Below the pieces are notes generated by a model. That model worked only from the letters and a program-made list of their open reading frames with translations. It ran no database searches and had not been told where the DNA came from. Below are positions 8,426 to 20,485 of a stretch of 20,485 bases of DNA, piece by piece. The position numbers and the translations under genes were made by a program. The DNA comes from a virus (lineage: Duplodnaviria; Heunggongvirae; Uroviricota; Caudoviricetes): positions 1-20,485 of IMG/VR virus record IMGVR_UViG_2568526635_000006, one strand, 5' to 3'. Position 1 is the first letter of the stretch. The number at the start of each line of letters is the position of its first letter.

Positions 8426-11400
8426 CTATATTTTTCCGCCTACGCCTTTAAACTTCTCAATAAACGAGACGATTTTCTGGAAAACTGCCTGTTTTTTCGT
8501 TTTATATTGCGGATTTAACGGACTAAGTTTTGGTAATGTTTCGTTTAATTCTGTGCCATTTTCGGTGGCATATTCGCGTTTTAAAGACGTGCGAATATAG
8601 CGTTTTGCTGCATCTTCATTGAGATTTTCTTCTTTTATCAATGCTTCTGCTTCACGTTGCTGTTCGCGTTGAGCAAACGTAAAGAATGCGTCAATGATGC
8701 TGGCTTTGTCCGGTAAATCATCCAGGTTCGTTTGCTGAATAAAATCGACCACCAGGCCCTCTTTAGCACGGTTCCCTAGGCTTGAACGAATTAAGCGTTT
8801 GACCTCTTCGATCATTTCGCCCTTGCCTTTATTTTGTCTGTTGTGTTCGAAAATCAGTCCAAGGATATAATCCAGGTTTATTTCCTGAGACTTCAGCAAA
8901 TCGACCTCAAAAACTACGTCATCCCAGTCAGTGGTTGATTTCTCTTTTTTCTCAGCTTCTTTCTCACGGCGCCGCCAGTCGCGAATATCGTTATAGGCAG
9001 AACGATAATCCTGAATCTTGCGATCAGCAGGGAGACGAATTGTTTGCAATTCAGCGAACTTTTCATTATCCACATAATGTTCTGCTTTGAATTTTTCTAC
9101 CGCAACAGGATCGCTAAGATCGATTTGTTGCAGGGCTTTTAGCGTGGCAAATTCATCATAGTTTTGCAGGATGTTCTCGGCACGCAGGTATTCGCCAAAC
9201 AGTTTAACGAAGTCTTTCTTCTCTTTTTCACTTTCAATACTGGTAGGGTCAGGGAACCGTTGTTCCAGTTCTGAAACTACTGTCATGAAGCCGCGTTTAG
9301 CTTCACCAGTAGCAGCATCAGTAAAGCCTTCCATATACTCTGTATAACTCTTTTCTAATACCACATTTTTGGTGTTTTTGTCACCAAACAGCGTTATGGC
9401 ATCAATAGTTGAGCGTTCCAGATCCCGGAACGTGACGATATTACCGAAGGTTTTAGTCGAGTCATAAATGCGGTTGGTGCGGGAGAATGCCTGCATCAGG
9501 CCGTGAAAACGCAAGTTTTTATCGACGAATAGCGTGTTTAATGTTGGAGCATCGAAGCCGGTTAAAAACATTCCCACGACAATTAACAGATCGATATCCT
9601 GATTTTTAACCCGTTGGGCTAAATCACGATAGTAGTTCTGAAAACCGTTACTGTCGGTGCTAAAGTTAGTTTTAAAATGGCTGTTATATTCACGAATTGC
9701 AGCGTCCAGAAACTCTTTAGCACTGCTGTCCATTGCGCTGGTATCAAAAGTTTCATCGGAAATTTCACCAATGGCATTTTGTTCTTCATTGGCGGCAAAG
9801 GAGAAGATTGTCGCAATACGCAGCGGTTTATAGGTAGCCGATTTATTAGCGGCTTCTTCTTGTAACCGTTTAAACGTCGCATAATAGGCTTTCGCGGCAT
9901 CCACGCTGCTCACTGCCAACATAGCATTAAAACCTTTTGAGCCAGGGAAGGTACGGTGGGTTTTCTGGCGGAAATTATTCAGGATATATTGCGTGATTTC
10001 CTGAATACGCATGGGATGAAGAAACGCCTGCTGATTTTCAGCCGCACTCAGTTTTTTCTCGTCAGTTTCTGTCTCTAAAGACTTAAACTGTGGCCGCACA
10101 TCGTTGTAGTCCACCTTGAATTTGAGCACTTTTTCGTCACGAATCGCATCGGTAATTACATACGAATGCAATTCACGACCAAATACGCTGGCGGTCGTTT
10201 CTGAGCCTAAGGCATTTTCCGGGAAAATAGGGGTGCCGGTAAAACCAAACTGATAATAGCGTTTGAATTTCTTCTTCAGGTTTTTCTGCGCTTCTCCAAA
10301 CTGGCTGCGGTGGCATTCATCAAATATAAACACCACTTGCTGATTGTATACAGGCAGGTCGCTTTCTGCTTTCATCAGGTTATTAAGTTTCTGAATAGTG
10401 GTGACGATAATTTTGTTATCGTCCTTATCCAGATTTCGTTTAAGACCTGCGGTATTTTCCGAGCCGTTGACGCTGTCTGGCGAAAAACGCTGATATTCCT
10501 TCATGGTCTGGTAATCGAGGTCTTTCCTGTCGACCACGAAGAAGACTTTATCAATAAAGTCCAGTTCAGTTGCCAGACGCGCGGCTTTAAAGCTGGTCAG
10601 TGTTTTACCGGAACCAGTGGTGTGCCAGATAAAGCCACCGCTTTCGGGGTTAGACCAGTTTTTCGCTTTATAGGAGCTGTTGATTTTCCATAAGATCCGT
10701 TCGGTAGCTGCAATCTGGTACGGTCGCATCACCAGTAGCGTCTGACTACTGTCAAACACGCTGTAGTTCACCAGAACATTAAGCAGGGTATGTTTCTGGA
10801 AAAAGGTAGCGGTAAAGTCTTTGAGGTCTTTAATCAGCGTGTTGTCTGATTTCGCCCAGTTCATGGTGAAGTCAAAACTGTTTTTATCGCGCTTTGTCGT
10901 GTTGGCAAAGTAACGGGTATCGGTGCCGTTGGAAATGACAAACAGTTGCAGATACTTAAACAGAGAATTTTCGCTGTTAAAACTCTCTTTGCTGTAACGA
11001 TGTATCTGGTTAAAGGCCTCACGAATCGCCACGCCGCGCTTTTTCAGTTCGATTTGTACCAGCGGTAAGCCATTAACCAGGATCGTGACGTCATAACGGT
11101 TAGCATGAGAACCCGTCTGTTCAAACTGCTGGATAATCTGCACCTTGTTGCGCATGAGATTCTTTTTATCTATCAAATAGATGTTCTCAAGACGCTCGTC
11201 ATCAAAAATAAAGTCGCAAATATAGTCGATATGGATTTTACGGGTCTTATCCAGGATGCCATCGCTCGGGTTATCCAGATACTGCTCCGTGAAACGCCGC
11301 CATTCGCTGTCATTAAACACCACACCATTGAGGTTCTGAAGCTGTTCCCGAACGTTGGCCAGCATCGCCGACTGAGATTTTACGGAAATAAATTCATAGC

Positions 11401-11542
11401 CCTGATTCCGCAGATCCTGAATCAGTTCACGTTCCAGGTCCGATTCGCTCTGGTAGCTGTCGCCTGTTTGCTCGGCTTTGATGTACTTATCAAGAACGAT
11501 AAAGTTATTGGATTCAGCAATGGTGTGTGTTTGATGAGTCAT
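8426..11542 (-). CDS. hsdR: Type I restriction enzyme R subunit (HsdR), 1038 aa
   Basis: SF2 helicase motif [14 protein letters not shown] and motif [12 protein letters not shown]; N-terminal PD-(D/E)xK-like nuclease region ([18 protein letters not shown]). ATG preceded by AAAGGA. Confidence 0.92.
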
Positions 11543-11663
11543 AGCGCATCCTTTGTGCCGTCTGGCAAGGGCCGGAAGGGCTTTAAGGGCGACTTCCGGC
11601 GTGTAAAAAATAGTCTCTATATAGACCGGATGTTAAGGTGATCCGGTCGGTAGCAATGGTCAA
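11543..11663 (-). promoter_or_regulatory. hsdS-hsdR intergenic region with two stem-loops; probable separate hsdR promoter and partial terminator
   Basis: Inverted repeats GACCGGAT-n9-ATCCGGTC (11624..11648) and GCCGGAAG-n14-CTTCCGGC (11571..11600), with a T-run on the minus strand between them. Confidence 0.35.
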
Positions 11664-12932
11664 TTAGTTACTGATAGTTTCAGGTTTGGGAAAACTGAAC
11701 AGTAAATCACGATAGTACTCGTATTGTTTCTGGCGCAACTCGATTTCACGCGGAAGACCTTCGGTGATGGAATTGGTCAAAGCATCAAATTTATCCAGTA
11801 ATTTCACTATTTTTTGTTGTTCAACTAGCGATCTTTCAGGAGAATCAGGAAATGGTACTGGTATCATAAGTTTTCTTAAGTTATCATTATAAAGTCTTTT
11901 AATAGTTCCACCTTCAGATATTCCCCATTTTGCTATTTTATAGAAATAGAATAAATATTTATTTAAAACTATTTTTTCATTATTTTCAATCCAGACAATA
12001 TTGCTATCCTGGAAATATGATTCCCTACCATCAAATATAACAGTCCTGCCGATGGTCCCACTGGCAGAAATCAATACTTCGCCAACTTTAGGATAACTAT
12101 ATTTTTCTTTAAATTCATTAAATAGTTTTCTAGATATATAGGAATCGGGTTCCTTACCAAATGTCCCAATTTTATAAAATGGAATCTCTCCCTCAGAAGA
12201 TGTTTGTGATTTTAGGATTCGTTTACACATACGAACTTCACCAATTTCCCCCAAAGCTTTCCACTCAACCTCACCCTCTTTAAAACTCAACAACTGGTCG
12301 CGATAGTAGTTGTATTGTTTTTTACGCATGCTAAGCTCAGCGGTAAGCTCAGCGGTAAGTGCAGTAAATTTGTCCAGAATCCGAACGATTTCAGACTGGA
12401 TGGCTAGGGACTTTTCCGGGTTGTCCGGGCAGGGTAATGGGATTTTGAATCTTCCCATTACGGCTGAGTTCAAGTTGTTAATGGTTGAGCTATTCAACAT
12501 TTCATCAAGATATTTTTGGAAAATATCACTTGTTAAAACGTGAAATAAATAACGTGGATTTAATTTTTCATCGCATCTGACGACCCCCATAAATCCGCCA
12601 AAGTAGTAGTCAATATCAGATTCTATGTAAGCAACTTTACCGACATGTTCACGGCTACCACTTGCTGCGCTAATTAGAATGTCGTTCTTATATAGCTTTT
12701 GCGAACTCTTTACTTTGGTGTCGAACCTCACCACCTTGACATCATTTAAATTTAAACAATTATTAGACAGCGTGATATTGTTAGCGCGAAGCACTTTATA
12801 GCCTTGACCATCCGCGCTTTCACTCGATTTGCTATAAATTAAACCACGTACATATTTTGCGACTTCTCCGAGAGTCTTCCACTCAACCTCAACCCCATCC
12901 AGCAATTTTTCCAGATAACTCATCTCGCTCAT
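11664..12932 (-). CDS. hsdS: Type I restriction-modification specificity subunit (HsdS), 422 aa, EcoR124 (type IC)-like
   Basis: Two AT-rich variable target-recognition domains separated by a conserved central region ending [26 protein letters not shown], with a C-terminal repeat [16 protein letters not shown]. Start overlaps the hsdM stop (ATGA). Confidence 0.9.
12333..12368 (-). repeat. Tandem 12-bp codon repeat encoding TAEL-TAEL, with a degenerate third unit TAL, in the HsdS central conserved region
   Basis: Plus strand AAGCTCAGCGGT x2 (12333..12356) followed by AAGTGCAGTAAA. Minus-strand codons ACC GCT GAG CTT x2. Confidence 0.8.
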
Positions 12933-14491
12933 TTCTGCACCTCGCAGCCTTCAATTTCAGCCACAATCGCATCAATATCTTTACGCAACTGGTCGATTTT
13001 GCTGACCGTGGTTTTCAGCTCAGCATTCAGCTCAGCGATATCGATAATTTCGCGAGTATCTTTCGCTTCCACATAGCTGCTCACCGACAGGTTATAGTCA
13101 TTCGCGACAACAGTCTCAAACGCAACAGATTTCGCCAGATGAGCAACATCTTCCTTGCTGGCAAATACCTGCATAATCTGTTCGATATGAGCATCGGTCA
13201 GAATGTTGTTGTTAGTCTCTTTTTTGAACAGTTCGCTGGCATCAATAAACTGAACTTTGGTATCCGTTTTATGTTTAGACAGCACCAGAATATTGACGGC
13301 AATAGTGGTGCCAAAGAACAGATTCGGTGCCAGTGAAATCACGGTTTCGACATAGTTATTGTCGACCAGATACTGACGGATTTTCTGCTCCGCGCCGCCA
13401 CGGTAAAAAATGCCTGGGAAGCAGACAATCGCAGCGCGACCTTTGGCCGAAAGATAGTTCAGCGCATGTAATACAAACGCAAAGTCAGCTTTGGATTTGG
13501 GGGCCAGAACGCCAGCCGGGGCAAAACGTTCATCGTTAATCAGCGTCGGGTCATCGCTGCCAATCCATTTCACCGAATACGGCGGGTTAGAAACGATGGC
13601 GTCAAACGGTTTTTCATCTCTGAAGTGCGGCTCAGTCAGTGTATTACCCAGCTTGATATCAAACTTGTCGTAGTTGATATTGTGCAAAAACATGTTCATA
13701 CGCGCCAGGTTATAGGTCGTATGGTTGATTTCCTGACCGAAAAAGCCTTCTTCGATGATGTGGTTATCAAACTGTTTTTTCGCCTGCAACAACAGTGAGC
13801 CGGAACCCGCTGCCGGGTCGTAGATTTTGTTAACGCTGGTCTGCCCGTGCATAGCCAGTTGTGCAATCAGCTTGGAGACGTGCTGCGGTGTAAAGAACTC
13901 ACCGCCTGACTTACCGGCATTTGCCGCATAGTTAGAAATCAGGAACTCATAGGCATCACCGAACAGGTCAATCTGATGTTCGTTGAAGTCACCAAGTTTT
14001 AACCCTTCAACCCCTTTCAGAACCGCAGCCAGGCGGGCATTTTTATCTTTAACGGTGTTACCCAGGCGGTTACTGGTGGTATCGAAATCAGCAAACAAAC
14101 CTTTGATGTCAGCTTCTGAAGGATAACCGTAAGCAGAACTTTCGATAGCAACGAAGATGCTGTTTAAATCTGCATTCAGTCTGTCATTAGTATTTGCTTT
14201 CGCAGCTACGTTGCAGAAAAGCTGACTGGGGTAGATGAAGTAGCCTTTAGTTTTGATGGCATCGTCTTTAATGTCATCAGTAATTACGCTGTCATCCAGT
14301 TTCGCATAACAGATACTGTCATCACCGGCTTCAATATAACTGGAAAAATTTTCGCTGATAAAACGGTAGAAAAGTGCGCCCAGAACGTATTGCTTAAAAT
14401 CCCATCCATCGACCGAACCCCTGACATCGTTAGCAATTTGCCAGATTTGACGATGAAGCTCTGCACGTTGTTGAATACTTGTCATTTTCAT
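12929..14491 (-). CDS. hsdM: Type I restriction-modification N6-adenine DNA methyltransferase (HsdM), 520 aa
   Basis: AdoMet-binding motif [11 protein letters not shown] and catalytic motif IV NPPYS; typical HsdM N-terminus. First gene of the minus-strand hsdMSR operon. Confidence 0.92.
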
Positions 14492-14630
14492 CCACTTATT
14501 TCAGGCTTATGTAATTGGCGGTGATTCTACAGCAACTTGGATGCTTTAGCAGTTCGGACATTAGGTAACGAATGACCTGCCTAGAGGTTTGTTAAGACGC
14601 AAAGTGCTGGTGCTTTATGCCTGTGAAGTT

Positions 14631-14660
14631 TATAATTGTGTACACATAACGAGTACACGA
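14631..14660 (+). promoter_or_regulatory. phd-doc promoter -10 (TATAAT) with palindromic autoregulatory operator half-sites
   Basis: TATAAT at 14631..14636, then TGTGTACACA and GAGTACAC palindromes immediately upstream of the RBS GAGGTG. Consistent with Phd/Doc autoregulation at palindromic operators. Confidence 0.5.
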
Positions 14661-14667
14661 GGTGTTT

Positions 14668-14889
14668 ATGCAATCCATTAACTTCCGTACCGCGCGCGGC
14701 AACCTTTCTGAAGTGCTCAACAATGTTGAAGCCGGGGAAGAGGTTGAAATCACCCGCAGAGGCCGTGAGCCAGCAGTAATTGTCAGCAAGGCTACTTTTG
14801 AAGCCTACAAAAAAGCGGCGCTGGATGCTGAATTTGCATCCCTGTTTGACACCCTGGACTCCACCAACAAGGAACTGGTTAACCGATAA
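14668..14889 (+). CDS. phd: Phd antitoxin (Phd/YefM family), 73 aa
   Basis: Product [49 protein letters not shown]... matches my recollection of phage P1 Phd essentially residue for residue. The track ORF begins 6 nt upstream at a GTG. Stop overlaps the doc start (TAATG). Confidence 0.9.
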
Positions 14890-15269
14890 TGAGGCATATA
14901 TCACCGGAAGAACTTATTGCGCTTCATGATGCGAATATAAACCGCTACGGCGGCCTGCCGGGAATGTCAGATCCGGGTAGGGCAGAGGCCATTATCGGGA
15001 GAGTTCAGGCCAGAGTTGCCTACGAAGATATCACCGACCTTTTCGAAGTCTCCGCCACCTACCTGGTGGCTACTGCGAGAGGGCATATATTCAATGATGC
15101 CAATAAGCGTACCGCGCTAAACAGTGCGCTGCTATTTCTACGCCGTAACGGGGTGCAGGTATTTGATTCACCAGAACTGGCAGACCTTACCGTAGGGGCT
15201 GCGACCGGAGAGATATCTGTATCTTCTGTCGCCGACACGTTACGTAGATTGTATGGTTCTGCGGAGTAG
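14889..15269 (+). CDS. doc: Doc toxin (Fic-fold kinase, death on curing), 126 aa
   Basis: Fic/Doc motif [12 protein letters not shown]; length and sequence match recalled P1 Doc. Confidence 0.9.
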
Positions 15270-15273
15270 ATTA

Positions 15274-15453
15274 ATGGCACGTAAATACAACAAATTGTCC
15301 CGTGAAGCGTTAAAGATGCTTCTTGATGGCGTGAGTCGCCGCGAGGTAAAGCAATACCTGGTTGGTAAGCAAATTGGTGCCAGGACAGCTATTGCTGTGT
15401 TATGCCGTCAGGAAATGGTTGTGCTTAAACAGAGAATGCCGGGCAGCAGATAA
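15274..15453 (+). CDS. Small hypothetical protein (59 aa from ATG 15274; the track ORF starts at 15253)
   Basis: ATG 7 nt after GGAG, just after the doc stop; basic product. By position it may correspond to one of the P1 post-doc (pdc) genes. Confidence 0.4.
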   Translation: MARKYNKLSREALKMLLDGVSRREVKQYLVGKQIGARTAIAVLCRQEMVVLKQRMPGSR

Positions 15454-15480
15454 AGCCCAATCAGTGATTAAAGGTGTGAT

Positions 15481-16524
15481 GTGAAAGCCGTAATTACTCC
15501 CTTTGTACAGAAAGAGCTTGGCCTCGCCACGTTCAAAGTGGATCAGGAGGTCAGAAAGCTGGTGGAGGCTGGCCGTAAATTTATTATGGAGCCGGTGCCG
15601 CGTGAGTTAATCGAGCACATGGACGACGGCCTCGTTGTTTCCGAGCAAACTATGGCAACAAATGAGGCGTTGCAGCCGTTTTTTAACAGCGATGAACTGT
15701 TTCGCCGTATTGGTGGAATTGACGCGCTGGTGGCGTGGTTGCGTAGGAAAGAGGGTCAATGCCAGGCCGCAGATCGTAGTTGGTGTGACAACCATATTGT
15801 CCACGCTGAACGAGACAATAGCGCGGTGTTGTTGTGCTGGCATCACGATAACCATTATCGGATGCGTGGTTTTAATGAGCTGAAAGAAACGCTGCACAAT
15901 AATCGCGTTAACTGGATACTGGATGTCGCCCGTCAGGAAATGGGCCTTTCAAATAGCCATGATTTAAGTATTCAGGAGCTGTGCTGGTGGGCTTTCATGC
16001 GCAACATGATGCACCTGATGCCGGAAGAAGTCTGCCGCATATCAATAAATAAGATGAAGGCTACTCCGCAGGATAGCGGACCTCTGAAAGAGGCGGATAT
16101 TCGCCCGTATGACGATCGCGCTACAGCATATGTTCAGATGATGGAAGAACGCGCCGCGCCGATGCGTGCAAAAGTATGCCCTGTGGATGTTGACTCCGAC
16201 CCAGGTATGGCGCATTTCAAGATACCAAAACTTCAATCGCTAAAATTGCCCGAGTACATGGACTTTGTGGCTTCCCGTCCATGCTGTGGCTGTGGAGCTG
16301 CGGGAGCTGGCGCTCACATTACGCCTTATATCGTTCGTCATAGTCGATTATGCGCGCATGACATTTATGCTATTCCTCTGTGCCAGTCATGCCAGCGTGA
16401 TATTGAGCGTGACCGCGATAATTGGGAGAAGACGCACGGTAGGCTGGCGATGCATCAACGATTGTTCTTTGATTACGCGCTTGGAGTCGGCGCTATCACA
16501 AGTCATTCGTCGAGTGTTAGATAA
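15481..16524 (+). CDS. Hypothetical 347-aa protein with two Cys/His-rich clusters (putative zinc-binding, possibly nuclease-like)
   Basis: GTG start after AAGGTG. Clusters [15 protein letters not shown]...CWHHDNH and [13 protein letters not shown]...RHSRLCAH...CQSCQ. May correspond to a P1 pdc gene by position. Confidence 0.55.
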
Positions 16525-16525
16525 A

Positions 16526-16567
16526 ATTGCTCTAATGTATTGCTATTTCTTTAATCTAGGGTATTAT
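16526..16567 (+). promoter_or_regulatory. C1-operator-like site overlapping a sigma70-type promoter upstream of the lpa-like gene
   Basis: ATTGCTCTAATGTATTG (14 of 17 to consensus) at 16526..16542 overlaps the -35 TTGCTA (16540..16545); 16-bp spacer; -10 TATTAT (16562..16567). In P1, gene 10 (lpa) is known to be C1-controlled. Confidence 0.5.
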
Positions 16568-16612
16568 ATTCGACGTTGATTAGTTGACATGGGCTAATCA
16601 GTAGGTGACAGG

Positions 16613-17065
16613 ATGTTACTTAACTGGCAGGGACGCCACTTCATGGAAATAAATCACTCACGAATAACATCGTACGAGATTGCGGATTACATGATCCGCA
16701 CTAAATCTCTTCTATCAGCGAAAGAACTCGCAGCAATTCTTGAAAAGGAATACCCGCATCTGGATGTCGATAAGCGCGATGTTTATCTGCGCTTAAAGGC
16801 TATCGCTGTGTCTAAGTATTCGTCTGTTTTGATTGATGACAGTACACGCCCACGTAGATTTCAGATCCACTCTCTGAATCCTGAATTCTTTCGCCGCAGT
16901 CGCGCTCCGCGCCGGTTTGATGAAAAACTCCAGAACGAACTCTATATGACGCAGGACGAAAAGGAACGCCGGGAGCACCAGCCTTGGGTAATGGCGCGTC
17001 AACTTTTCAATAAGGTGGTCCGTCAGCACCGTCATTACGGTAATGCCACATCCGCACGTATCTGA
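16613..17065 (+). CDS. lpa: Putative late-promoter activator (Lpa / gp10-like), about 140 to 150 aa
   Basis: Assigned by synteny (directly upstream of pacA, downstream of phd-doc) and by the C1-operator-controlled promoter, not by recognised sequence. Alternative start ATG 16643. Confidence 0.5.
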   Translation: MLLNWQGRHFMEINHSRITSYEIADYMIRTKSLLSAKELAAILEKEYPHLDVDKRDVYLRLKAIAVSKYSSVLIDDSTRPRRFQIHSLNPEFFRRSRAPRRFDEKLQNELYMTQDEKERREHQPWVMARQLFNKVVRQHRHYGNATSARI

Positions 17066-17151
17066 TTGATTGCTTGCCCGTTCCGGGCCTTTTGACATGT
17101 GACTTTCGTTACCCTCGCGTCAAAAAGAGTTTTATACGAAAGGAAGCATAA

Positions 17152-18345
17152 GTGACCTGGGACGATCACAAGAAGAATTTTGCTCGCCTGGCGCGAGATG
17201 GTGGTTACACCATCGCACAATATGCCGCCGAGTTTAATCTCAACCCAAACACCGCACGTCGTTATCTCCGTGCATTCAAAGAAGACACCGGAACAGCGGA
17301 CAGCCGTAAGCCAAATAAGCCTGTCAGGAAACCACTAAAAAGCATGATCATTGATCACGCTAATGATCAACGTGCAGGTGATCACGTTGTGGCTGAAATG
17401 GCTGAAAAACAAAGAGTTAATGCTGTTGTCAGTGCCGCAGTCGAGAACGCTAAGCGCCAAAATAAGCGCATAAATGATCGTTCTGATGATCATGACGTGA
17501 TCACCCGCGCCCACCGTACCTTACGTGATCGCCTGGAACGCGACACCCTGGATGATGATGGTGAACGCTTTGAATTCGAAGCTGGCGATTACCTGATAGA
17601 TAACGTTGAAGCGCGGAAGGCCGCGCGCGCTATGTTGCGTCGGTCCGGGGCCGATGTTCTGGAAACCACACTTCTGGAAAAGTCTCTTTCTCATCTCCTT
17701 ATGCTGGAGAACGCCAGGGATACGTGTATTCGCCTGGTGCAGGAAATGCGCGATCAGCAAAAAGACGATGATGAAGGTACTCCGCCTGAATACCGTATCG
17801 CGAGCATGCTAAACAGCTGTTCCGCGCAGATAAGCAGCCTGATCAACACCATTTACAGCATCCGGAATAACTATCGAAAAGAAAGCCGGGAGGCGGAAAA
17901 GCACGCTTTGTCTATGGGGCAAGCTGGCATTGTTAAGCTGGCATACGAACGAAAGCGTGAAAATAACTGGTCAGTGCTGGAAGCAGCTGAATTCATCGAG
18001 GCGCATGGCGGGAAAGTGCCGCCCCTGATGCTGGAGCAAATCAAAGCCGATCTGCGTGCTCCTAAGACAAATACCGATGATGAGGAAAGGCAAACTGCCG
18101 TCGGTGGCCCTTCTCTTGAAGATCTGGACAAAGTTGCGCGAGAACGGGCCGCCAACCGCCGCGCCGATGCTGCATTGTGGATTGAGCAACGTAGGGAAGA
18201 AATCGCCGATATCGTTGATACAGGCGGTTATGGAGATGTTGATACTGAAGGTGTATCAAACGAACCATGGCTGGAACAAGACCTGGACGAAGACGAGGAG
18301 GAAGACGAAGAAGTTACCCGCAAGCTATACGGGGATGATGATTAA
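17152..18345 (+). CDS. pacA: Terminase small (pac-recognition) subunit PacA, 397 aa
   Basis: GTG start 5 nt after AGGAAG. The P1-type pac site lies inside the gene, the length matches recalled P1 PacA, the C-terminus is acidic, and the stop overlaps the pacB start (TAATG). Confidence 0.85.
17344..17503. other. P1-type pac (packaging initiation) site inside pacA
   Basis: About 160 bp holding seven GATC-containing hexamers in a 4+3 arrangement: TGATCA x4 at 17345..17384 and TGATCG/TGATCA/TGATCA at 17475..17503, separated by about 90 bp. Each hexamer contains a Dam site. Confidence 0.85.
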
Positions 18346-19829
18346 TGGCCAGAAGTTGCGTAACGGATCCACGTTGGCGCGAGCTGGTGGCGCTATATCG
18401 TTATGACTGGATTGCTGCCGCTGATGTTTTGTTCGGCAAAACACCTACCTGGCAGCAGGATCTGATTATTGAGTCTGTGCAGGAACAGGGTAGCAAGACA
18501 TCTGTTTCGTCTGGTCACGGTACCGGGAAATCAGACATGACTTCTATCATGATCATGTTGTTCATAATCATGTATCCCGGTGCCCGCGCCATTATCGTTG
18601 CGAACAAAATTCAGCAGGTAATGACCGGTATATTCAAGTACATCAAGATAAACTGGGCTACTGCCACCAGCCGTTTTCCATGGCTTGCTGATTATTTTGT
18701 TCTGACAGAAACCGCTTTCTATGAGGTTACTGGTAAAGGTGTATGGACTGTAGTACCGAAGGGCTTTCGTCTGGGAAGTGAAGAAGCTCTCGCCGGTGAA
18801 CACGCAGATCATCTTCTGTATATTATCGATGAAGCCTCCGGTGTCAGTGATAGAGCTTTCGGTATCATCACCGGTGCTCTTACCGGACAGGATAACCGCA
18901 TCTTATTACTGTCACAGCCTACACGCCCAAGCGGCTATTTCTACGATACTCACCATAAACTGGCCAAGCGTCCTGGTAACCCTGATGGCGTTTATACGGC
19001 GATCACGCTTAACAGTGAGGAATCACCGCTGGTAACGCCAGCATTTATCAAAATGAAGCTGGCGGAGTACGGCGGGCGTGATAACCCTATGTACATGATT
19101 AAGGTACGCGGACTATTCCCTAAATCACAGGATGGCTTCCTTCTTGGACGTGATGAGGTTGAACGTGCGACGCGGCGGAAAGTCAAGATTGCCAAAGGAT
19201 GGGGCTGGCTTGCATGTGTGGACGTTGCTGGTGGTACGGGACGGGATAAGTCCGTTATCAATATCATGATGGTGTCCGGCCAGAGAAATAAACGCCGTGT
19301 AATCAACTATCGAATGCTGGAATACACAGACGTTACAGAAACGCAGCTTGCCGCCAAAATTTTCGCAGAATGTAATCCTGAGCGATTCCCAAATATCACC
19401 ATAGCGATAGACGGCGATGGGCTGGGTAAAGCAACAGCGGATCTGATGTACGAGTATTATGGTATTACCGTACAGCGTATACGCTGGGGTAAAAAGATGC
19501 ATAGCCGTGAAGATAAGAGCCTGTACTTTGATAAACGTGCTTATGCCAATGTTCAAGCCGCAGAGGCCGTAAAATCTGGTCGTATGAGACTGGATAAGGG
19601 TAATGAAACTATTGAGGAAGCGTCGAAAATCCCTGTAGGGATTAACTCCGCAGGTCAATGGAAGGTGATGAGTAAGGAGGATATGAAGAAAAAACTCAAC
19701 CTGCACTCACCAGACCATTGGGATACATATTGTTTCGCTATGCTGGCGGATTATGTTCCCCAGGATGAAGTGCTTAGCGTCGAAGACGAAGCGCAGGTTG
19801 ATGAAGCTCTGGCATGGCTTAATGAATGA
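18345..19829 (+). CDS. pacB: Terminase large subunit PacB, 494 aa
   Basis: Walker A-like [13 protein letters not shown] and Walker B-like [11 protein letters not shown]; length and position after pacA match P1 PacB. Confidence 0.88.
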
Positions 19830-19832
19830 ACA

Positions 19833-19849
19833 TTTGCTCTAATGAATTG
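19833..19849 (+). promoter_or_regulatory. C1-operator-like 17-mer immediately downstream of pacB
   Basis: TTTGCTCTAATGAATTG matches the consensus at 14 of 17 positions, 4 nt after the pacB stop. Confidence 0.35.
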
Positions 19850-19975
19850 TGTTTTTTAACTACCGATGTTACATTGAACCTGACCTCTTGCGCCTTGAGG
19901 CATTTTCGGTTTATGCTTATCAGGCACCTCATTAAAACGGGTGCCGGGATTGAGACCCCGGATAATGCAAAAGGC

Positions 19976-20008
19976 GACACAGACGCCAAAAGCGTCTTTT
20001 TTTGTGTC
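19976..20008 (+). terminator. Rho-independent terminator after pacB
   Basis: GACGC-caaaa-GCGTC followed by TTTTTTT, nested inside an outer GACACA...TGTGTC stem. Confidence 0.55.
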
Positions 20009-20188
20009 ATGCCATCGCACAGCCATACGTAGCGTTTAGCTCAGAGATCAATGGTAGTGCTGGCTGGGCTGCCGAAAGGCAGGCCGGTTCCCTTTTGCGC
20101 CGGTAGTCTCAACCCAGTCAGTGCTACCGCCATTGAGATTGAGACCTCACGCGGTAGCTCCTTAAATTAGCAAAAGGAGGCTGCCATT

Positions 20189-20410
20189 GTGGCTACTATC
20201 CCTACCCCTGCTCATCCTGAATTTATCTGGCGCTTTTACTCCTGCCAAAAACGTCACTATCACTTCGTTATTGCACCGACAGAAGATGAGGCACGTTCTC
20301 AGCTTCCTGACGCCCCATGTATTTTCTCTGCCCGTTTTTCCACTGATTCACGCAATTCTCTCAGTTACTGGTGCCTCCCTGTTAACGCTTCTGCTCAGGA
20401 GGGACTATGA
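20189..20410 (+). CDS. Hypothetical 73-aa protein
   Basis: GTG start 8 nt after AAGGAGG; stop overlaps the next ATG (ATGA). An alternative 81-aa hydrophobic reading frame (20187..20432) shares the same RBS, so the frame choice is uncertain. Confidence 0.35.
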   Translation: MATIPTPAHPEFIWRFYSCQKRHYHFVIAPTEDEARSQLPDAPCIFSARFSTDSRNSLSYWCLPVNASAQEGL

Positions 20411-20485
20411 GAACATCGTTAGTTACCCGTGAAGAGATGATCGAGGCAATTGAACAGCACACTGCCTGTATCAGTACCAGGGATA
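20407..20485 (+). CDS. Hypothetical protein, 5' fragment only (continues beyond the window)
   Basis: ATG after AGGAGGGA; 26 codons (MRTSLVTREEMIEAIEQHTACISTRD) open to the window end. Confidence 0.4.
   Translation, partial: MRTSLVTREEMIEAIEQHTACISTRD

Follow-up and report, generated by a model that had tools for sequence, protein, structure and literature searches.

Organization of the region downstream of pacB

The window, by which we mean the whole analyzed stretch of 20,485 nucleotides, contains a non-coding stretch at positions 19830-20188, located between the stop codon of pacB (19827-29) and a GTG-started ORF of 73 codons (20189-20410). In a sequence-only reading this stretch had been singled out as highly structured, and the folding calculation bears this out: the RNA folding energy is -133.2 kcal/mol compared to -108.7 +/- 5.9 kcal/mol in dinucleotide shuffles (z = -4.15), with none of the 100 shuffles folding as well. 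The strings and hairpins on which that reading was built are all present where it placed them. The covariance-model search that it proposed yielded exactly two Rfam matches above the gathering score in the entire window, to the isrK and C4 families, both on the plus strand and both inside 19830-20188. The features of the locus are as follows.

18345-19829, plus strand: pacB (terminase large subunit), an ORF; left neighbor, outside the module
19833-19849, plus strand: C1-operator-like 17-mer TTTGCTCTAATGAATTG, identical to the consensus ATTGCTCTAATAAATTT at 14 of 17 positions
19847-19875, plus strand: putative promoter resembling P2c4 (P51a) of P1, TTGTGT (19847-52), 17 nt, TACATT (19870-75); by positional homology to the P1 record
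19888-19917, plus strand: putative promoter resembling P1c4 (P51b) of P1, TTGCGC (19888-93), 18 nt, TATGCT (19912-17); by alignment
19924-20002, plus strand: isrK/seqA-type leader RNA of three hairpins, the last being an intrinsic terminator (Rfam RF01394)
19924-44, plus strand: leader hairpin 1 (from the fold)
19944-61, plus strand: leader hairpin 2, CCGGG-ATTGAGAC-CCCGG, with a1 in the loop (from the fold)
19950-56, plus strand: decoy site a1, TTGAGAC, exact complement of a'
19967-74, plus strand: decoy site b1, GCAAAAGG, exact complement of b'
19981-20003, plus strand: intrinsic terminator (terminator scan)
20047-20134, plus strand: C4 antisense RNA gene (Rfam RF01695)
20091-98, plus strand: recognition element b', CCTTTTGC, in a C4 hairpin loop
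20106-12, plus strand: recognition element a', GTCTCAA, in the C4 single-stranded junction
20139-20145, plus strand: target a2, TTGAGAC, exact complement of a'
20170-77, plus strand: target b2, GCAAAAGG, exact complement of b'
20189-20410, plus strand: icd-like gene encoding 73 aa from a GTG codon (49.8 bits with NCBIfam NF033153 phage_ICD_like, cut-off 25)
20407-20485, plus strand: start of ant (antirepressor), truncated by the end of the window; complete gene (370 aa) taken from an identical plasmid

Genomic context

The window is 100% identical to the Escherichia coli P1-like phage-plasmids NZ_LT985263.1 and pGZM7b. These plasmids align solely from window position 61 on, and positions 1-60 may either represent a junction or have been masked by the BLAST low-complexity filter. 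Homology to P1 and P7, which includes pacB, stops at the pacB stop codon (window 19831-19836). In P1, c1 ends 24 bp after pacB, whereas the gene order on the window-type plasmids is pacB, the RNA region, icd, ant and then c1, coi, lox and cre, such that a c4-icd-ant module of approximately 2 kb occupies the place of the 24-bp spacer. The suspicion, raised from the sequence, that this junction differs from that of P1 was therefore correct. An empty, P1-type pacB-c1 junction is present in pC21-4 (NZ_CP052881.1, 57300-60500), the backbone of which is 98.2% identical over window positions 61-19831; given this near-identical backbone, the ~2-kb module is a presence/absence polymorphism. Comparison of the insertion boundaries revealed neither a target-site duplication nor direct repeats. 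Among the plasmids in PLSDB, the pacB-to-module junction was found in 291 records compared to 558 records with a near-full pacB, that is, in about half. Because the operator and promoter are P1 immI-like, the RNA core is 96% identical to that of D6 and ant is unlike that of D6, the module is a mosaic.

The plasmids CP063732.1 and pGZM7b also retain the canonical immI beside kilA-repL, with a C4 of its own (69.6 and 70.8 bits, respectively), so that CP063732.1 carries two C4 genes.

Operator and promoters

The operator-like site that had been noticed after the pacB stop codon aligns with the annotated Oc4 (Op51) of P1, of which it is the positional equivalent. Altogether six C1-operator-like 17-mers were observed in the window compared to 0.15 expected by chance, and we infer that C1 would bind the one at 19833-49, which has three mismatches to the consensus. 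The five others, with at most three mismatches each, are at 2396-2412, 6020-6036, 6069-6085, 8161-8177 and 16526-16542, the last of these being located directly upstream of an lpa-like gene (start 16613).

Both promoters of the module are putative. The -35 element of the P2c4-like promoter overlaps the operator-like site; the P1c4-like promoter aligns with TTGACC...TATAGT of P1 and ends 7 nt 5' of the start of the isrK model match, and it is from this promoter onward that the sequence is held in common with D6. The operator-like site sits at the homologous place and the promoter-like pairs beside it are weak by consensus, neither of them (19847-75 and 19888-19917) being picked up by the promoter scan.

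The C4 RNA and the isrK-type leader

The C4 match scores 75 bits, where 45 are required, and runs over the entire model (positions 1-87 of 87); judging by its homology with the annotated P1 c4 of 77 nt, the mature RNA would span approximately 20053-20131. The folding energy of the 88-nt core is -46.4 kcal/mol (z = -5.6), and its minimum-free-energy fold is the family structure, with a long closing stem around two hairpins, CTGCC-GAAA-GGCAG (20069-20082) and CCGG-n12-CCGG (20084-20103), and a single-stranded stretch. The conservation of the stems, which the sequence-only reading had suggested examining by comparative alignment, is pronounced: in 12 homologues 98.1% of the cells are paired and 13 of the 27 pairs have changed on both sides, whereas none of 500 shuffles was as good and slid controls were 30-51% paired. 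The 3' strand of the closing stem (20123-30) can instead pair with 20151-58 (GCTACCGC/GCGGTAGC), placing a2 in a hairpin loop; this alternative helix is also compensatory in phiP27, the Stx phages, P4 and 673R5, and may be a switch between the precursor and the processed RNA.

The leader matches the isrK family with 59 bits against a gathering cut-off of 50. In the alignment of 11 homologues, 89.7% of the cells are paired, with double changes in six pairs, and an isrK-type element was detected 5' of C4 in nine of the ten other loci searched. The identification of the leader with the c4-a1b1 family (Rfam RF03163) was considered and rejected: this model gives only 22.3 bits at 19911-19964, below its cut-off of 46.7, and the isrK model fits the same element better. 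Conversely, the P1 leader gives 51 bits with c4-a1b1 and only a sub-threshold match to isrK, and the canonical immI copies on the same plasmids as the window module pass the c4-a1b1 model as well (54.6 and 56.2 bits). Thus, the leader in the window is of the isrK type rather than of the P1 type; the a1/b1 function is, to judge by complementarity, still present in it.

The only convincing intrinsic terminator of the region is that at 19981-20003, which lies within the run of hairpins, 3' of the CCGGG hairpin, and not between the operator and the hairpins as had been surmised. Between the operator and the first hairpin there is only a 4-bp CCUC/GAGG stem, for which the scan gives no call.

Recognition elements and their targets

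GTCTCAA (20106-12) and TTGAGAC (20139-45), which are separated by 26 nt and had been taken for the arms of a local hairpin, are the antisense element a' and its target a2. Exact complements of the 7-nt a' and of the 8-nt b' lie both upstream (a1 and b1) and downstream (a2 and b2) of C4, and not one of 100,000 shuffled a'/b' pairs gave complements in both flanks of the window. Target b2 overlaps the Shine-Dalgarno sequence of icd, AAGGAGG (20174-80). A truncated repeat of a2 stands in tandem before it (TTGAGA-TTGAGAC, 20134-20145), and in the P7-type and P1 modules another incomplete a2-like copy lies a few bases 3' of a2.

We compared 12 modules, namely those of the window, the P7-type immI, P1, D6, phiP27, two Stx2 phages, PA8, APSE-1, P4, an Stx1 phage and the P1-like phage 673R5. 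These modules hold nine different a' heptamers and nine different b' sequences, and each a' and b' is matched by its own a2, b2 and a1 at conserved positions; b1 usually matches b' too, in several modules solely through G-U wobble pairs, and in 673R5 the pairings with a2 and b2 include one G-U each. The offset of a2 from the 3' end of C4 is 5-11 nt in 11 of the 12 modules and two bases further (7-13 nt) in APSE-1. In the other modules, as in the window, a1 is located in the loop of leader hairpin 2, and b2 overlaps the site at which ribosomes would bind for the gene that follows. The a' and b' elements reassort between modules independently of each other. Such covariation between molecules argues strongly that it is the pairing that has been selected for.

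The module of phage 673R5 (vB_EcoM-673R5) occupies the same slot next to pacB and has the same operator, promoter and first hairpin (locus positions 525-760). From a1 on its code differs, with a' AGGCCAA and b' CCTTGGAC matched by the respective a1, a2, b1 and b2, and it is followed by a different downstream gene, 'Roi'. It appears that the part of the module conferring specificity can be exchanged.

The canonical immI modules on the plasmids that also carry the window module have the codes a' CTGCTAA and b' CACAATC on CP063732.1 and a' CTGCTAA and b' CGTAAGT on pGZM7b, each of which matches its own targets exactly. Between these canonical codes and the targets of the window module, there is no common complement of at least 7 nt. 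A 6-nt complement of the canonical a' at window positions 20167-72 was discarded, about 0.4 such matches being expected by chance. In RNAduplex calculations on long segments, the own target is usually the best one but the energies are noisy, the window C4 scoring about as well on the P4 target (-28.7) as on its own (-28.5); because RNAduplex discriminates poorly, cross-talk was assessed from the table of exact complements. P1 and P7 are heteroimmune through just two base differences per element, and by the same yardstick the canonical and window C4 circuits should be orthogonal. Given the presence of a canonical immI with different a' and b' on the same plasmid, the window module most likely represents an additional switch for an antirepressor, with a specificity of its own. 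The canonical C4 of pGZM7b (12981-13066 of the locus) combines a P7-type a' with a b' that is neither that of P1 nor that of P7; since the canonical b1 and b2 match this b', it represents a further immI specificity.

The icd and ant genes

A strong ribosome-binding site and two coupled genes had been predicted at the end of the structured stretch, and both are there: the Shine-Dalgarno sequence precedes the GTG codon at 20189, and the start of ant overlaps the stop codon of icd (ATGA, 20407-10). The Icd-like protein is 76% identical to Icd of the canonical immI on CP063732.1. The full-length Ant, encoded on the identical plasmid pGZM7b (8708-9820 of the locus), contains the Pfam ORF6N and ANT/KilAC domains and is 56% identical to the canonical Ant.

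Relationship to known antisense-controlled systems

The reference for P1, in which C4 and Ant have been described (PMC8198154), was the GenBank annotation NC_005856, where the order of elements is Oc4, P2c4, P1c4, a1, b1, c4 (77 nt), a2, b2, icd and ant1/2, with the legend 'repression of icd ant translation' and with b2 annotated as a translational repression site. The window module, which can be aligned to this record element by element, shares with immI of P1/P7 the order of all parts, the fold of C4, the position of the operator-like site, the two recognition elements with two pairs of targets, the placement of b2 on the ribosome-binding site of icd, and the succession of c4 by icd and ant coupled through an ATGA overlap. 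It differs in its location (between pacB and c1 as opposed to between sim and kilA-repL), in its code (GTCTCAA/CCTTTTGC, unrelated to CTGTCAA/CACTAAC of P1), in its leader, which fits the isrK model and not c4-a1b1, in the middle domain of Ant (ORF6N), and in being an additional copy next to a retained canonical immI. What keeps it from being 'the' P1 immI is just its position and its sub-threshold score with the c4-a1b1 model.

A close relative of the RNA core is found in the immI-like region of the D6 plasmid prophage, with 96% identity over window positions 19923-20200 and identical a', b', a1, b1, a2 and b2. The D6 module, however, is without the P1-type operator and the upstream ~60 bp and has another ant gene, the nucleotide homology ending inside icd at window position 20250.

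In the IsrK locus of Gifsy-1 (isrK-orf45-anrP), a leader with three hairpins and a terminator likewise precedes a stable RNA that arises by processing (STnc1160) and a translationally coupled antirepressor gene; the target of the short IsrK leader RNA, which works in trans, is the long transcript, and the processed RNA lies downstream (Hershko-Shalev et al., 2016; PMC4825925). In contrast to the window module, Gifsy-1 has no icd; its antirepressor is instead coupled to orf45, an ORF overlapping with the C4-like region, and the system was not framed as C4 antisense control (Hershko-Shalev et al., 2016). Hfq binding and trans-activation of the antirepressor are known solely for IsrK of Salmonella (PMC4825925).

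The Rfam C4 and isrK models also pick up the relatives of CI and seqA (PMC10111431), and P4, with its CI RNA and seqA/seqC, has a homologous RNA gene and upstream site (74.9 bits for C4 and 60.8 bits for isrK); CI is processed from the leader of the operon it controls, as the C4 RNA of the window would be. The difference is in the output, which in P4 is premature transcription termination of replication genes, whereas in the window the target lies over the ribosome-binding site 5' of icd-ant.

All immI-type sequence parts are present and intact in the window and the RNA folds fit their families. In all probability, the region thus forms the regulatory 5' part of a full operon of the P1/P7 immI type that comprises the operator, promoter(s), a1-b1 leader, c4, a2-b2, icd and ant. 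Since neither the RNA families nor their occurrence in tandem nor the logic of immI is new, the module belongs to an already known kind of element: it is a well-known C4 antisense-RNA/leader cassette that would keep an antirepressor gene off, real but ordinary, and some GenBank phage records already annotate both RNAs (isrK-type leader and C4). A conspicuous structured intergenic region is hereby explained as a textbook antisense-RNA immunity cassette.

Proposed mechanism and alternative interpretations

By homology to the P1/P7, P4 and Gifsy-1 systems, the following functional steps can be proposed for the module. Transcription would start near 19924 and would in part stop at the terminator (19981-20003), producing a short IsrK-like RNA with a1 and b1, whereas read-through transcripts would be processed to a C4 RNA of ~79 nt, the 5' cut being made by RNase P at about G20053. 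Through a' and b', C4 would pair with a2 and b2 on the operon mRNA and cover the ribosome-binding site of icd; in the absence of icd translation, the coupled ant would not be expressed, in P1 via translational coupling and Rho-dependent polarity. With the antirepressor, which would inactivate C1, kept off, the C1 repressor would maintain the prophage. The a1/b1 copy would sequester the C4 loops, either in cis in the precursor or in trans as the short RNA, and thereby tune or relieve repression, as has been demonstrated for IsrK, and one of the promoters would in addition come under repressor control via the C1-type operator. The P1/P7 work behind the C4 steps is said to be that of Citron and Schuster in 1990, Biere et al. 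in 1992 and Hartmann et al. in 1995.

The exact output step could differ from this scheme because the homologous CI RNA of P4 acts by transcription termination and not by a block of translation. The same parts would then work differently: pairing of the RNA with a1/b1 (seqA-like) and a2/b2 (seqC-like) would cause premature transcription termination, at the leader terminator (19981-20003) or downstream, rather than mainly block icd translation. The P4 CI region is a detectable homologue of the module (72.6% identity over 155 nt), the isrK/seqA-type leader in the window contains a strong intrinsic terminator, and the possibility has been discussed by Hershko-Shalev et al. Nevertheless, this output appears improbable, considering that the location of b2 over the Shine-Dalgarno sequence of icd, which is seen in other modules too, is the hallmark of the translational mechanism annotated in P1, and that icd and ant follow downstream, as they do in P1, in place of the replication genes of P4.

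With regard to whether the proposed C4-icd-ant switch operates at all, the module could be an inactive relic, that is, a duplicated immI fragment that is carried along by recombination and is neither expressed nor regulatory. It is an accessory insertion absent from near-identical backbones, its promoters look weak and a canonical immI is retained elsewhere on the plasmid. Such a relic, however, would hardly be expected to have six perfectly complementary recognition sites and intact icd and ant frames, or to be joined to pacB in 291 plasmid records; moreover, in the 673R5 module in the same slot, all six sites (a1, a', a2, b1, b' and b2) have changed in concert, which implies selection on pairing. 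We therefore regard this possibility as very unlikely.

The core of the region is treated as protein-coding in RefSeq, where a 39-aa ORF on the plus strand (20051-20170), directly over the C4 RNA gene, is annotated as 'ash family protein' (WP_071527722.1). This ORF does match the Pfam family Phage_ASH (PF10554) with 29.1 bits against a cut-off of 26, and orf45 of Salmonella Gifsy-1, to which a functional product would be analogous, has been reported to be translated (PMC4825925). Yet there is hardly any room for this interpretation: an NCBIfam search with the ORF gave no match, the homologous ORFs in the 12 modules extend from an invariant AUG over 14, 15, 31, 37, 39 or more than 53 codons and have no Shine-Dalgarno sequence, so that a conserved translatable ORF, as expected of an Ash family, was not found, and the substitutions are compensatory for the RNA stems. 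The ash ORF call, and perhaps part of the Pfam family too, looks like a translated RNA gene. With the C4 reading, the database annotation can be corrected, in that the 'ash family protein' ORF and other hypothetical ORFs in this region overlie RNA genes.

Of the three identities that had been offered for the structured stretch, namely an sRNA, a structured leader and a degraded tRNA-like recombination site, the first two both apply, the C4 RNA (75 bits) being located in the structured leader of the icd-ant operon, 3' of the isrK-type element (59 bits). The third, a degraded tRNA or tRNA-like attachment site, can be dismissed: the only grounds for it are the short strings TAGCTCAG (20037-44), TGGTAG (20052-57) and GGTTCCC (20086-92), which belong to the C4 leader, to the start of the C4 closing stem and to the b' loop, respectively, whereas ARAGORN reports 0 tRNA genes, Rfam RF00005 has no match at E <= 1 in 19700-20485, and the insertion boundary, which is the breakpoint with respect to P1, P7 and the 98%-identical empty plasmid (19831-36), is at the pacB stop codon, 200 nt away. 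The resemblance to a tRNA has at most an indirect basis, in that the C4 precursor of P1/P7 is reportedly a substrate of RNase P (Hartmann et al., 1995).

Two modules on one phage-plasmid

A broader interpretation, to which we give slightly less than even credence, is that the pacB-c1 gap of P1-like phage-plasmids is a swap site for a second antisense-controlled antirepressor switch, with about half of these elements carrying two orthogonal C4/Ant circuits. The two circuits may be the canonical immI plus one of the D6 type or, in 673R5, of yet another type. If so, a prophage with two circuits would silence the antirepressors of two immunity groups, and an incoming two-module phage would keep one antirepressor that a single-module resident cannot silence, an asymmetric advantage in the competition among P1-, P7- and D6-like elements. 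Many of the P1-like phage-plasmids that carry antibiotic resistance hold two C4/antirepressor modules with different recognition codes, and this could shape which phage-plasmids coexist with or displace each other. The unexplored part of this picture, a modest point, is that the pacB-c1 slot so commonly holds an additional C4/antirepressor switch with a different code, together with the bearing of this on competition between phage-plasmids.

In the literature on a 'second immI' in P1-like plasmids, we found just a remark by Venturini et al. (2019) and the report of a D6-like second c4/icd region. Venturini et al. (2019) described an insertion of ant and of 'two short hypothetical' ORFs in the pacB-c1 gap, with RCS47 as a further example, the RNAs being unrecognised. 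In D6, a second C4-like match lies ~470 nt upstream of the main C4 (locus positions 2116-2195; 40.2 bits compared to the cut-off of 45), and this sub-threshold match is in line with a published comment on another c4- and icd-homologous region in D6-like plasmids.
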